64,000 nt of DNA from Candidatus Nomurabacteria bacterium (GTDB lineage: Bacteria; Patescibacteriota; Minisyncoccia; Phycocordibacterales; SBAW01), in NCBI GenBank assembly GCA_943356495.1, contig CALRFF010000001.1:24957-88956 (forward strand), written 5' to 3'. The notes below the pieces were generated by a model, which saw nothing but the letters and a program-made list of their open reading frames with translations, searched no databases and had not been told where the DNA came from. Position 1 is the first letter of the stretch. Each line of letters begins with the position of its first letter. This document shows positions 57,093 to 59,915 of the stretch, in pieces. Position numbers and translations under genes: made by a program.

Positions 57093-59915
57093 TCAAGCAC
57101 TCTTGACAGACAAACTTAAAATCTTGCCCGGTACATACACCACCTTAGTTATGTCTGCGCCGGAAAGCCACTTAGCCACCACTGCATTGGCCTGCGCGGC
57201 AGCAACCGCCTCCTCTTGCGAAGCGGTGGGGGCAAGCTCAACCGTGCCGCGTAATTTGCCGTTAACCTGTACGCCCAAGGACAGCACCGCCGCCGTAAGT
57301 TTGGTCGCGTCGTAGGTGGGCCACTGCTCCCAATCGGTTGTTACAAAGCCCGCGCGTTCGGCAAGCTCATGGGCAAGGTGCGGCGCAAAGGGGTTAAGTA
57401 TCTGCAAAAATTGCATCCACTGCGCCTTGCCTATCGTCTTTTCTTTTTCTACGGCATTAAGCAGTATCATCATCTGGCTTACTGCGGTATTAAACTTAAA
57501 CGCCTCGATATCATCGCCCACCTTTTTAACCGTCTGCGCAACAATAGTATCAAGTGCCGGCACTGCGGACTCTTGTACCGCGTCTTGGAGCTTCCACACA
57601 CGCTCGACAAAGCGCGACACGCCGTTTATCGAAGCGGGGTTCCATGCGGTCGTATTTTCAAACGGACCCATAAACATTTCGTATAAACGGAAGGTGTCCG
57701 CCCCCACCTGTGCCACCACGGTTTGGGGGTTAATAACGTTGCCGTAACGCTTACTCATTTTGCGGCCGTCCTCGGCCAAGATAAACCCCAAAAACTCCAA
57801 CCGGGCAAAAGGCTCGGTGGTGCTTACCGCCCCGATATCGTAGAGAAATTTGTGCCAAAAGCGGGCATAGATTAAGTGCCGCACCGCGTGGTCGCCGCCC
57901 ACATATACATCAACCGGCGCCCAATACTTTTCTTTCTTCGGATCCACCAACGCAGTGTCGTTATGCGGGTCCATAAAACGCAGATAATACCAGCTACTCC
58001 CCGCCCACTGCGGCATGGTGTTTGTCTCGCGCTTGGCGGGGCCGCCGCAGGTAGGGCAGGTCGTGTTAACCCACTCCTGTATATTCGCCAAAGGCGACTC
58101 GCCCGTGCCCGAGGGCTCATAAGAGGTAACTTCCGGCAACAGCACGGGCAAATCCTTTTCGGGCACGGCAACGGCGCCGTCTGTAGGACAATGGATAATC
58201 GGGATAGGCTCGCCCCAGTAGCGCTGGCGGCTAAACACCCAGTCTTTTAGTTTGTAGGTAGTGGTCATCTTGCCGCCGACAAACTCGGTTATTTTTTTCT
58301 TGGCTTCCTCGCTCTCCAAGCGGTCAAATTGCCCTGAATTAGCAAGCGTCCCGTTGCCGGTATAGATGCTCTGCGTGCCCAAGAGCCAACGCAGACCATG
58401 CTGATGCGTATCGGGAGTCAAGAATTTTTTAAGCTCTTCAGCCGTGAGCCAAAGCATCTCATGTATAGATTCTTCTTCGGCCGCGACCGGCTTACGCGCA
58501 TCGCTCCGGAGCTCGAAATACACAACATGCGCATGGGCATTACGGTTAGTTTTTTTTGGCACGTGATAAAACTTGCCGTGGACAATGCCGAAGTCCTTTA
58601 TAAACTCCGCATCGGTATAGCCAACCTCTTCCTCAAGCTCTGCGCGTGCCGCGATTTCGGGAGTTTGCCCTTTTTCTATGCCGCCGGTTATAAAAGTCCC
58701 CCACGCCACTTTTTTCCACTTAAGCGCAATATATTTGTCTTCGGCCCAATGCTTTACTATCGCAATTATCGCCTCGCGATGGTCAAAAGGCTCCCCTTTT
58801 TTTATCTTTCCGGGTTCAGTGGTTTGTTCGTAGGTAGGCTCGATGACCTGTCTGATAGGTAATTTAAATTTATTTGCAAACTCGTAGTCGCGCTCGTCGT
58901 GCGCGGGCACAGCCATAATTGCGCCGGTGCCGTAGCCCCACAACACATAGTCGGCGACAAACACCGGAATTTCTTCTTTCGTCGCGGGATTGATGGCTTT
59001 GACGCCTTTAAGCTCGACGCCGGTCTTTTCTTTAGCCGCCCCACGCTCTATCTCGGTTTTGCTTTGCGCTTTCGCTACATATTTTTTAACCTCGGCATTG
59101 CCAAATTCTTCAACCAGCGGATGTTCGGGGGCCAACACGATATATGTGGCTCCAAACAGCGTATCCGGTCGCGTCGTAAACACTTCTATTTGTGATTTGT
59201 TATTTGTTATTTGAAATTTCAGAAGGGCACCTTCCGAGCGGCCTATCCAGTTGCGCTGAGCTTCCTTTATATACTCGGGCCATTGCAGGCCCCCCAAGTC
59301 TTCCAACATACGGTCGGCATAGGCTGTAATTTTAAGCACCCACTGCGGCAGGCGCTTTTTTTCTACCTTGGTACCGCAACGCTCGCACACGTCGCCGTCC
59401 AAGTCCTCGTTAGCAAGCCCCGTCATGCACGAGGGACACCAATTGATAGGCTCACTGCTCTGGTAGGCCAAACCCTTTTTAAACATCTGCAAAAAAATCC
59501 ATTGCGTCCACTTGTAGTACGCCGGGTCGGTGGTATTAATCTCACGCGACCAGTCGTAGTCAAAGCCGATGTCGGCAAGCTGCTGCTTAAAGTTGGCGAT
59601 ATTTTGCTCGACCGCTACGCGGGGGTGGATTTTGTTTTTGATGGCATAATTTTCGGCGGGTAGGCCAAAGGCGTCCCACCCCATGGGGTGCAGCACGTTG
59701 TGTCCGCGCATGCGCATATGGCGGCTGTAGATATCGGTCGCTATGTAGCCCTTAGGGTGCCCTACATGGAGCCCCTCGCCCGAAGGGTACGGAAACATAT
59801 CGAGCACGTAGGTTTTAGGTTTGGCAGAGTCGTCGGTAGCGGCAAAAGCTTTGGACTCTTTCCACTTTTCCTGCCATTTTTTTTCTATACTCCGATGATC
59901 GTACTGGTCGGCCAT
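57093..59915 (-). CDS. leuS: leucine--tRNA ligase with an inserted NUDIX-fold module
   Basis: HIGH ([12 protein letters not shown]), Zn-1 domain (CPSC...CERC), CP1 editing domain ([19 protein letters not shown]), KMSKR and anticodon-binding domain. Residues ~375-512 are an insertion with a Nudix-box-like motif. Confidence 0.9.
   Translation of the reverse strand: [940 protein letters not shown]

Follow-up and report, generated by a model that had tools for sequence, protein, structure and literature searches.

Synthetases with accreted enzyme domains are a known theme, as illustrated by the NCBIfam model NF040702 ('isoleucine--tRNA ligase, N-acetyltransferase domain-containing'), in which an autonomous enzyme domain likewise lies inside a class I synthetase. 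Here, we analyzed a leucyl-tRNA synthetase (LeuRS) whose CP1 editing domain contains a Nudix domain. Its gene, leuS, lies in a 64,000-nucleotide stretch of DNA (hereafter, the window) from Candidatus Nomurabacteria bacterium (assembly GCA_943356495.1, contig CALRFF010000001.1, positions 24,957-88,956, forward strand), the host being a Paceibacteria/Parcubacteria-like organism of the Patescibacteria. What sets this LeuRS apart from other synthetases with accreted domains is the Nudix identity of the insert, whose clade is devoted largely to synthetases and of which a single protein can hold as many as three diverged copies. A first, sequence-only reading of this DNA knew of no characterized LeuRS with such an insertion, and our full-text literature searches on LeuRS, aminoacyl-tRNA synthetases, Nudix, diadenosine tetraphosphate (Ap4A), and Patescibacteria or the candidate phyla radiation (CPR) likewise yielded no account of LeuRS, or of any other synthetase, with a Nudix domain; the combination is plainly visible in precomputed Pfam annotations.

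Compared with the bacterial LeuRS proteins of Thermus thermophilus (1H3N/2BTE) and Escherichia coli (4AQ7/5OMW), the window protein shares the TIGR00396 profile, the HIGH and KMSKS signatures, the T-rich motif, the editing aspartates, and the overall fold. It differs from them by a Nudix domain of 147-157 amino acids in a CP1 loop that comprises 2 residues in Thermus, and it differs from the T. thermophilus enzyme by the absence of the leucine-specific domain.

Aminoacyl-tRNA synthetases are textbook sources of Ap4A, producing dinucleoside polyphosphates from aminoacyl-adenylate and ATP, and it has long been asked whether Ap4A acts as a signal or arises as a by-product of damage. Two control systems are familiar, namely (i) the mammalian LysRS/Ap4A/NUDT2 axis and (ii) E. 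coli ApaH or RppH, which control Ap4A and Np4A caps. Both resemble the arrangement that we propose here, in that a synthetase-derived dinucleotide is paired with a hydrolase that removes it. Producer and hydrolase are, however, separate in those systems, whereas they would form one polypeptide in the window protein if the predicted activity holds. Background on NUDT2, an Ap4A hydrolase, is available elsewhere (PMC4856261).

The relevant Nudix enzymes are the diadenosine and diphosphoinositol polyphosphate hydrolases and the RNA pyrophosphohydrolases, for which we compared T. thermophilus Ndx1, Mycobacterium tuberculosis Rv2985, DDP1/DIPP1, E. coli RppH, and the Aquifex and lupin Ap4A hydrolases. 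The module has in common with these proteins the REUXEE glutamates and many conserved basic residues. In contrast to them, it is at most 22% identical, falls under the equivalog cut-offs, begins with an N-terminal beta lead-in, is embedded in a synthetase, and carries a signature of its own clade (R380, KHW388-390, LKWKKVxW, K454xxNR458, and E481xxxH485xxxW489). The MutT/nudix protein of Enterococcus faecalis (PDB 2AZW) shows 19% identity to the module; it is a free-standing Firmicute protein from a structural-genomics entry that names no function.

A Nudix domain in the CP1 loop of LeuRS

The inserted module comprises residues 360-516 of the LeuRS (58368..58838, minus strand), with an N-terminal beta lead-in followed by the alpha/beta/alpha Nudix domain. 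In the alignment with Thermus LeuRS, residues 3-369 and 517-715 of the window protein correspond to Thermus residues 2-373 and 376-580, respectively, so that 147 residues stand where Thermus has a 2-residue loop. The segment flagged by the sequence-only reading (58380-58795) equals residues 374-512; we set wider bounds, because the free-standing homologs already possess the lead-in P-x-F/Y-x-Q-T-T-E-P-G. The junctions read VIEP/TYEQ and GTQS/IYTG. Pfam NUDIX (PF00293, gathering score 21.1) matches residues 404-510 of the full protein (E 2.5e-12, 47.4 bits) and, with a higher score, the excised segment (E 1.5e-13, 51.3 bits), as that reading had anticipated. The insert interrupts the editing-domain profile PF13603 between positions ∼147 and 148 of 185, and ∼35 further CP1 residues follow it. 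The module is therefore located inside CP1, and not, as had first been thought, between the exit from CP1 and the catalytic core.

Structure prediction agrees with the profile matches. An AlphaFold2 model of residues 360-516 (54 aligned sequences) reached a predicted local distance difference test score (pLDDT) of 96 and a predicted template-modeling score (pTM) of 0.89, and showed the usual Nudix order of strands and helices in an alpha/beta/alpha fold, with the Nudix box on a helix formed by residues 419-431. Foldseek comparison of this model with the PDB returned 527 matches at E ≤ 1e-3, every one of them a Nudix protein. In the model of the full-length protein, the module keeps a pLDDT of 88-97, its linkers are predicted with a pLDDT of 88-95, and an unbroken beta strand (residues 358-363) runs from the LeuRS 'VIEP' into the 'TYE' of the module. 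The Nudix domain is, in short, a self-contained unit of ∼150 amino acids that lies in frame in a loop of the CP1 editing domain.

The host synthetase is intact around the insert, as the sequence-only reading had stated. leuS (57093..59915, minus strand, stop codon included) is a single unbroken open reading frame (ORF) for a bacterial-type LeuRS of 940 amino acids. The bacterial LeuRS model TIGR00396 (leuS_bact) scores 989.7 bits for the whole protein (cut-off 548.4), its match falling into two stretches with the insert between them, and a phmmer comparison with T. thermophilus LeuRS (1h3n) gave an E value of 3.6e-222. The HIGH signature (HVGH, residues 50-53; 59757..59768, minus strand) and the KMSKS signature (KMSK, residues 719-722; 57750..57761, minus strand) are nearly invariant in an alignment of LeuRS relatives. 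The section of CP1 before the insert (residues 221-359; 58839..59255, minus strand), identified by PF13603 and by its motifs, includes the T-rich motif TTRPDT (residues 247-252) and the editing-aspartate motif AHDERD (residues 338-343); PF13603 (tRNA-synt_1_2) scores 215 bits here, with residues 221-365 covering profile positions 1-147. The section after the insert (residues 517-553; 58257..58367, minus strand) is placed by the alignment of residue 517 onward with Thermus residue 376 onward, and Nudix-less relatives keep it, whole or shortened. Directly behind it, YKLKDW (residues 554-559) marks the return of the chain into the catalytic core.

The full-length AlphaFold2 model (pLDDT 89.5, pTM 0.79) superposes on known LeuRS structures, with a template-modeling (TM) score of 0.84 to E. 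coli LeuRS (5omw) and target-normalized TM scores of 0.78-0.84 across the E. coli and Thermus enzymes. Directly before KMSKS (57750-57770), the leucine-specific domain is absent, residues 715-720 spanning Thermus residues 580-638. Because this domain is typical of the family, and neither universal nor defining, the assignment to LeuRS stands. Judged by its sequence, the protein is a housekeeping bacterial-type LeuRS in which every defining feature tested was found, and both charging and CP1 editing are predicted to remain conventional.

Independent assemblies in ENA and NCBI yielded 7 contigs that encode the same 940 residues (P0153) amid the same neighboring genes, and neither GC content nor GC skew shows a step at the insert borders. 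The 7 contigs, together with the recurrence of the arrangement in 79 of 80 species loci (see below), exclude the assembly chimera that the sequence-only reading had named as a possible pitfall, and a frameshift fusion is rejected on the same grounds. An intein or a mobile element with terminal repeats was also considered and rejected: the insert shows no splice-junction residues and no Hint or endonuclease domain, with NUDIX as the sole domain found in it, and flanking repeats do not exceed chance. Consensus scans for a promoter or terminator inside leuS at the insert gave matches at or below the shuffled expectation. A regulatory RNA at this position is likewise rejected, Rfam detecting only three tRNAs, all of them elsewhere in the window. 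In one assembly of a syntenic relative (GCA_037975565.1, JBBCBH010013801.1; L001, 4582-7430), leuS is split into at least five short gene calls in all three frames; the insert is present there, its Nudix part is 88% identical to that of the window, and the broken gene is most likely an indel sequencing error in that assembly.

Distribution and exchange of the module

A homolog search with the insert alone, which was limited by its word index, returned P0001 (163 amino acids, 59% identical), P0002 (190 amino acids, 51% identical), and one fragment; a profile scan and a genome scan were needed for the true distribution. A profile of these sequences matched 558 of 1.84 billion cluster representatives at E ≤ 1e-3, and 254 at E ≤ 1e-10. 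So small a number indicates a narrow clade, and not the Nudix superfamily at large. Among 152 top family members, 109 are LeuRS proteins or LeuRS fragments, 39 are short free proteins, and 4 are others, among them one ProRS (see below); the free-standing homologs measure 160-190 amino acids. The spread among related Patescibacteria, a check that the sequence-only reading had proposed, proved wide: our scan of one genome per GTDB species, with two exact peptide patterns, located the module in at least 113 species. All 80 loci that we fetched are CPR metagenome-assembled genomes (MAGs), from Paceibacterota/Parcubacteria groups, Saccharimonadales, Berkel-, Doudna-, and Moranbacteria, and others, and in 79 of them the module lies inside or directly beside leuS. 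The arrangement is no rarity of this genome: with the full protein as the query, 109 of the 120 top-ranking LeuRS clusters carried PF00293. The module is thus the majority state in the nearest Patescibacteria LeuRS clusters, with PF00293 tags already public, although the public names of such proteins range from 'leucine--tRNA ligase' to 'class I tRNA ligase family protein' and even 'alpha/beta fold hydrolase'.

On four metagenomic contigs (L002-L005), the genes for the free homologs P0001 and P0002 directly precede leuS, and free homologs hold the same position in L048 and L062. Taken together, these sequence surveys place the clade almost only inside or beside aminoacyl-tRNA synthetase genes.

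Several further loci deserve description. P0151 is an archaeal-type class II ProRS in which a Nudix domain of this clade follows the anticodon-binding domain and precedes the C-terminal one; four more ProRS clusters (P0273-P0276) have this architecture, and Nudix-less relatives are labelled Nanoarchaeota or Woesearchaeota. A contig labelled Candidatus Woesearchaeota archaeon (JACPNG010000015.1; L018) encodes a bacterial-type LeuRS with a Nudix domain at the window's site and an additional insert of ∼190 amino acids early in CP1; its presence in an archaeal bin reflects either mis-binning or inter-domain transfer. In a Doudnabacteria MAG (JAHFJI010000005.1; L091, 482-8549), the gene order is a class I aminoacyl-tRNA synthetase, an unknown gene, TatD, a free Nudix protein of the family, two small ORFs, a YfbR-like HD nucleotidase, an unknown gene, a second Nudix protein, and leuS, the last encoding 823 amino acids without the insert; this run looks like a nucleotide-salvage or clean-up cluster beside leuS. 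Moreover, many loci, mostly labelled Saccharibacteria/Saccharimonadales, contain a second, canonical Nudix gene of ∼170 codons 2-4 kb downstream of leuS (L002, at 4528-5025, as well as L008, L038, L046, L048, L049, L054, L056, L059, L062, L067, L076, and L078). Its product matches the clade profile weakly (17-30 bits), and in L002 the gene lies between nusB and rnc.

Mapped onto the residue numbering of the window LeuRS, the modules occupy four sites: S1, directly before CP1 (after residue ∼207-210); S2, early in CP1 (∼236-245); S3, the window's site (∼360-369), which holds 166 of 247 non-redundant modules; and S4, in the second zinc-binding region (∼617-628). Among the 80 species loci, 61 have a module at S3 only, six at S1 and S3, three in tandem at S3, two at S1, S1, and S3, and two at S2 and S3; two combine a free gene with S3, and the remaining architectures are single cases. 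A module-bearing LeuRS carries one to three copies. Some LeuRS proteins with three (1140-1560 amino acids; L055, L063, P0004, and P0005) have a tandem pair ahead of CP1 and a third module at the window's site. Modules that share one protein are 23-44% identical to each other, which suggests old paralogs with different roles. The closest relative of a module is often free or at another site, as for the free module of L062 and S3 of L067 (70% identity), S2 of L061 and S3 of L039 (61%), and S3 of L064 and S1 of P0005 (63%); the module has therefore been relocated repeatedly.

The module can also be missing altogether. The LeuRS bodies of P0185, P0195, and P0213 (761-769 amino acids) are 80-82% identical to the window protein overall (80-84% in the N-terminal part and 75-80% in the C-terminal part) and are thus as close to it as its nearest Nudix-bearing relatives, yet they have no module. 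P0185 and P0195 share the window's gene order (ATP synthase ... flavodoxin-like, YchF, DUF5671, leuS, sigma-70-r4 protein ... YceG, MnmA), and no Nudix gene of the family lies within 8 kb of them. DNA alignment with the module-less relatives shows a clean in-frame indel. Among 108 module-bearing LeuRS proteins from the full-protein search, the body is 72-84% identical to the window in those listed, and the module is 26-84% identical. A closer body does not mean a closer module (Spearman -0.41, without phylogenetic correction and with divergent modules possibly misaligned in part), indicating that different Nudix subtypes occupy the same loop of closely related hosts. On this comparative evidence, the module behaves as an accessory cassette that has been gained, lost, relocated, and replaced among close relatives.

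In related CPR LeuRS proteins (P0159/L009, P0173, P0251, P0196, P0230, P0193, and P0256), these surface loops also house enzyme domains of other kinds, whether or not a Nudix module is present. These include an alpha/beta-hydrolase in P0159 (residues 243-398) and Ham1/ITPase domains in P0196 and P0230 (∼245-389), both types at S2, and a HAD domain near S4, as in P0193 (1001-1155); HAD-bearing LeuRS proteins reach 1530 amino acids. The same CP1 loops thus serve as landing sites for Nudix and non-Nudix inserts, and domains of four kinds (Nudix, Ham1/ITPase, HAD, and alpha/beta-hydrolase) have accumulated in the CP1 editing domain of CPR LeuRS, making it a hot spot of accretion.

The Nudix site and its possible roles

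The Nudix box of the window module (residues 411-433; 58617..58685, minus strand) reads G411-x5-Q417-x7-A425-E-L-E-E-E-V-G-Y. Relative to the canonical GX5EX7REUXEEXGU, the first glutamate is replaced by glutamine and the arginine by alanine, exactly as noticed at first sight, whereas the first glycine and the E-U-x-E-E-x-G-U core, with its three glutamates, are unaltered. Over the 247 non-redundant modules, Gly411, Glu426, Glu430, and Gly432 are ∼100% conserved and Glu429 is conserved at 94%. Glu occupies position 417 in 53% of the modules and Gln in 36%; at position 425, 57% have Arg and 27% have Ala or Met; the family consensus is the canonical box. The two variable positions covary, with Glu and Arg together in 128 modules, neither in 103, and a mixed pair in 16 (Fisher 6e-50, not tree-corrected). 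In the Gln-type subclade, which includes the window copy, all other signature residues are kept at 84-100%. Covariation in an otherwise preserved site points to the joint loss of an interacting pair, not to decay, and would be consistent with a lost structural salt bridge rather than with lost catalysis. The substitutions consequently do not single out the window copy as a 'modified' Nudix domain, a label that the sequence-only reading had considered for it, since the 103 modules with this pair retain the rest of the signature.

Beyond the box, clade-specific residues (K454-x2-N457-R458, L469, E481, H485, and W489; 58449..58556, minus strand) are conserved at 85-98% each. Arg380, K388-H389-W390, Trp400, Lys401, and Trp405 are also near-invariant, and the window copy retains all of these clade-specific positions. 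Glu481, conserved at 91%, could serve as a fourth metal ligand or as the catalytic base, the role of E98 in MutT and of E120 in RppH. In comparison with the P0154 gene, the rate of nonsynonymous substitution (dN) amounts to 0.102 for the module and 0.103 for the N-terminal core, as against 0.162 for CP1 and 0.145 for the C-terminal part, the synonymous rate being saturated; these rates indicate purifying selection on the module as strong as that on the synthetase core. A degenerate pseudo-Nudix domain, as Gln417 and Ala425 might suggest, was rejected as the leading view, because the two positions change together, the site is otherwise invariant, and the module has a low dN. The module stands as an autonomous Nudix domain that selection maintains and whose predicted metal site is intact.

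As our leading, but tentative, reading, in which we place slightly less than even confidence, the module would be an active pyrophosphohydrolase tethered to the synthetase, with ApnA-type dinucleotides or RNA ends as its most likely substrates. It would act in cis beside the synthetase as a catalytically competent, metal-dependent enzyme, and its likeliest substrates would be the adenine-containing polyphosphates of aminoacyl-adenylate chemistry, i.e., Ap4A, other dinucleoside polyphosphates (ApnN), or RNA 5' ends bearing them. Tethering would keep dinucleotide by-products or alarmones low at their place of origin. Competence is suggested by the invariance of Glu426 and Glu430, by Glu429 and Glu481, and by the canonical consensus box. 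A functional tie to aminoacyl-tRNA synthetases is suggested by the position of the module in or beside leuS, by its four LeuRS sites, by its moves between these sites and the free state, and by its occurrence in ProRS. ApnA and polyphosphate hydrolases are slightly enriched among the top structural neighbors of the model, with MutT-like, ADP-sugar, and decapping enzymes only slightly lower, so that the ranking does not discriminate between them; conserved basic and aromatic residues are abundant in the clade. Both features are consistent with, though no proof of, ApnN-type substrates.

Several observations weigh against this reading. The NCBIfam equivalog models for RppH, MutT, NudE, and YfcD all score the module far below their cut-offs, with a best value of 25.6 bits (cut-off 118) for the RppH models NF001934-NF001938 and values of 16.5 and 22 bits (cut-offs 97.9 and 148) for the MutT models TIGR00586 and NF008044. 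To our knowledge, LeuRS is not a leading Ap4A producer. The module is dispensable, being absent from syntenic relatives with ∼80% identity, and its four insertion sites argue against a precise geometric coupling to either active site. Further, the Ham1/ITPase, alpha/beta-hydrolase, and HAD inserts of sister LeuRS proteins would fit a generic 'carrier' role equally, and Gln417 and Ala425 may lower the activity of the window copy. Substrate assignment by homology was attempted and failed, as the PDB profile hits are weak (E ∼1e-3, box region only), the equivalogs lie below cut-off, and the structural neighbors have many specificities. The module is thus not a member of the RppH families, though it may work like RppH or ApnA enzymes.

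A broader form of the tethered-hydrolase reading is possible, but we hold it to be rather doubtful. It would see a dedicated Nudix clade that co-evolved with synthetases in ultra-small prokaryotes, as a swappable cassette that destroys the host enzyme's own Ap4A/ApnN or the RNA caps derived from them. Patescibacteria would host it in LeuRS and a few DPANN-like lineages in ProRS, a single polypeptide would then be built both to make and to remove the alarmone, and the diverged modules of multi-copy LeuRS proteins would cover several substrates.

Among the alternatives, the one that survives best is nucleotide-pool house-cleaning, which we nevertheless consider unlikely. In this case, the module would be a MutT- or ITPase-like NTP pyrophosphatase for damaged or non-canonical nucleotides, and LeuRS a mere carrier that ensures co-expression with an essential, constitutive enzyme in a reduced genome, with no mechanistic link to leucylation. 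Such a role would agree with the Ham1/ITPase domains at the other CP1 loop of P0196 and P0230 and the HAD or alpha/beta-hydrolase domains of other LeuRS proteins, as well as with the free family member that is clustered upstream of leuS with TatD, a YfbR-like HD nucleotidase, and a second Nudix gene in the Doudnabacteria locus. Close relatives that do without the module, four tolerated sites that suggest that geometry is irrelevant, and MutT-, NudI-, and NudB-type NTPases among the structural neighbors point the same way. Pure piggy-backing, however, does not predict the host specificity of so narrow a clade, whose best matches are mostly LeuRS, which has entered synthetases repeatedly (four LeuRS sites and ProRS), and whose free copies usually adjoin leuS. 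The low scores with the MutT equivalogs (16-22 bits, cut-offs 98-148) also speak against it.

Improbable, in our view, is a non-catalytic or weakly catalytic domain that binds nucleotides or RNA. Such a domain might sense Ap4A or some other nucleotide, or provide additional tRNA-binding surface, and would exert allosteric control over LeuRS or make up for the absent leucine-specific domain. Nudix folds that bind RNA or Ap4A without catalysis are known, with CFIm25/NUDT21 as an example, and the substitutions at two canonical box positions of the window copy, the lack of the leucine-specific domain, and the modeled strand that runs straight into the module through confidently predicted linkers, suggesting a rigid rather than a floppy attachment, could be read in this way. 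Yet the three metal-binding glutamates and the two glycines of the box vary hardly, if at all, across the 247 modules, including every copy in multi-copy proteins, most family members have a fully canonical box, and the Gln/non-Arg pair fits salt-bridge loss better than loss of catalysis. In addition, free homologs of 160-190 amino acids would suit an autonomous enzyme, and close relatives that also lack the region of the leucine-specific domain manage without the module.

Added proofreading is very improbable. It would consist in the hydrolysis of non-cognate aminoacyl-adenylates (pre-transfer editing), complementing the post-transfer editing of CP1, or in the removal of a LeuRS-bound adenylate mimic, such as a leucyl-adenylate-like toxin. 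Three of the four sites lie in or at the edge of CP1, the other inserts of relatives are also hydrolases, including an esterase-type alpha/beta-hydrolase, and the cassette-like gain, loss, and replacement, with module identity independent of the host, is reminiscent of genes under conflict. Aminoacyl-adenylates, however, are acyl-phosphate anhydrides and not nucleoside diphosphate-X compounds, and the known aminoacyl-AMP hydrolases are HIT-family enzymes, not Nudix enzymes. Moreover, the intact CP1 editing motifs leave no editing deficit to compensate, and the same clade occupies an unrelated position in class II ProRS. The PADLOC defence library gave no match for the window module and one weak hit for the free homolog P0001 (PDC-S07, E 5e-4). 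PHROGs returned generic Nudix hits only, and an anti-phage defence module was rejected for want of a PADLOC match of the window module. Both the binding and the proofreading roles are less likely than the tethered pyrophosphohydrolase and house-cleaning.

An artefact or a selfish element, i.e., a chimera, a frameshift-fused neighboring gene, or an intein-like mobile insertion without host function, has a negligible probability, given that its variable presence among close relatives, its several sites, and the nearest free homologs right beside leuS are outweighed by the 7 contigs with an identical protein, the unbroken ORF without a compositional break, the recurrent in-frame architecture of the species loci, a dN as low as that of the catalytic core, and the null results for intein junctions, endonuclease domains, repeats beyond chance, and internal promoter or terminator signals.

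Genes around leuS and implications

The gene downstream of leuS encodes a protein of 367 amino acids with sigma-70 region 4 and a weak HARE-HTH match. Its longest start, a GTG at 57100, gives an overlap of 8 nucleotides with the end of leuS (57093-57100), which suggests co-transcription; other gene callers start it ∼50 nucleotides further down. Two other minus-strand genes of the window encode proteins without a Pfam match, namely a membrane protein of 315 amino acids with a long Pro/Val/Ala-rich tail (62515-63462) and a protein of 462 amino acids (54203-55591), the syntenic counterpart of which is tagged DUF8128 in relatives. The only Rfam and ARAGORN matches in the window are three plus-strand tRNA genes, for Glu-CTC (4163-4235), Pro-GGG (15251-15322), and Ala-GGC (63880-63954).

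In summary, there is firm support for the Nudix-LeuRS architecture itself, which makes an interesting lead. It is also a warning for annotation, given that the names of some of these proteins go no further than 'class I tRNA ligase family protein' or 'alpha/beta fold hydrolase'. If the module is a plain, hitch-hiking house-cleaning enzyme, it is a curiosity of domain architecture and not new biology. A Nudix domain inside a synthetase would be a 'Rosetta-stone' argument that the two activities belong together; the fusion recurs in hundreds of lineages, with several insertion sites, as many as three copies, and a neighboring gene as a further form, and it offers a simple test system of one protein with or without the module. 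The accretion of domains in CP1 is of interest for the way in which accessory enzymes are packaged in reduced genomes and for the tolerance of essential proteins to insertions. If the tethered-hydrolase reading is true, the module may physically couple tRNA charging to the clean-up of its nucleotide by-products.

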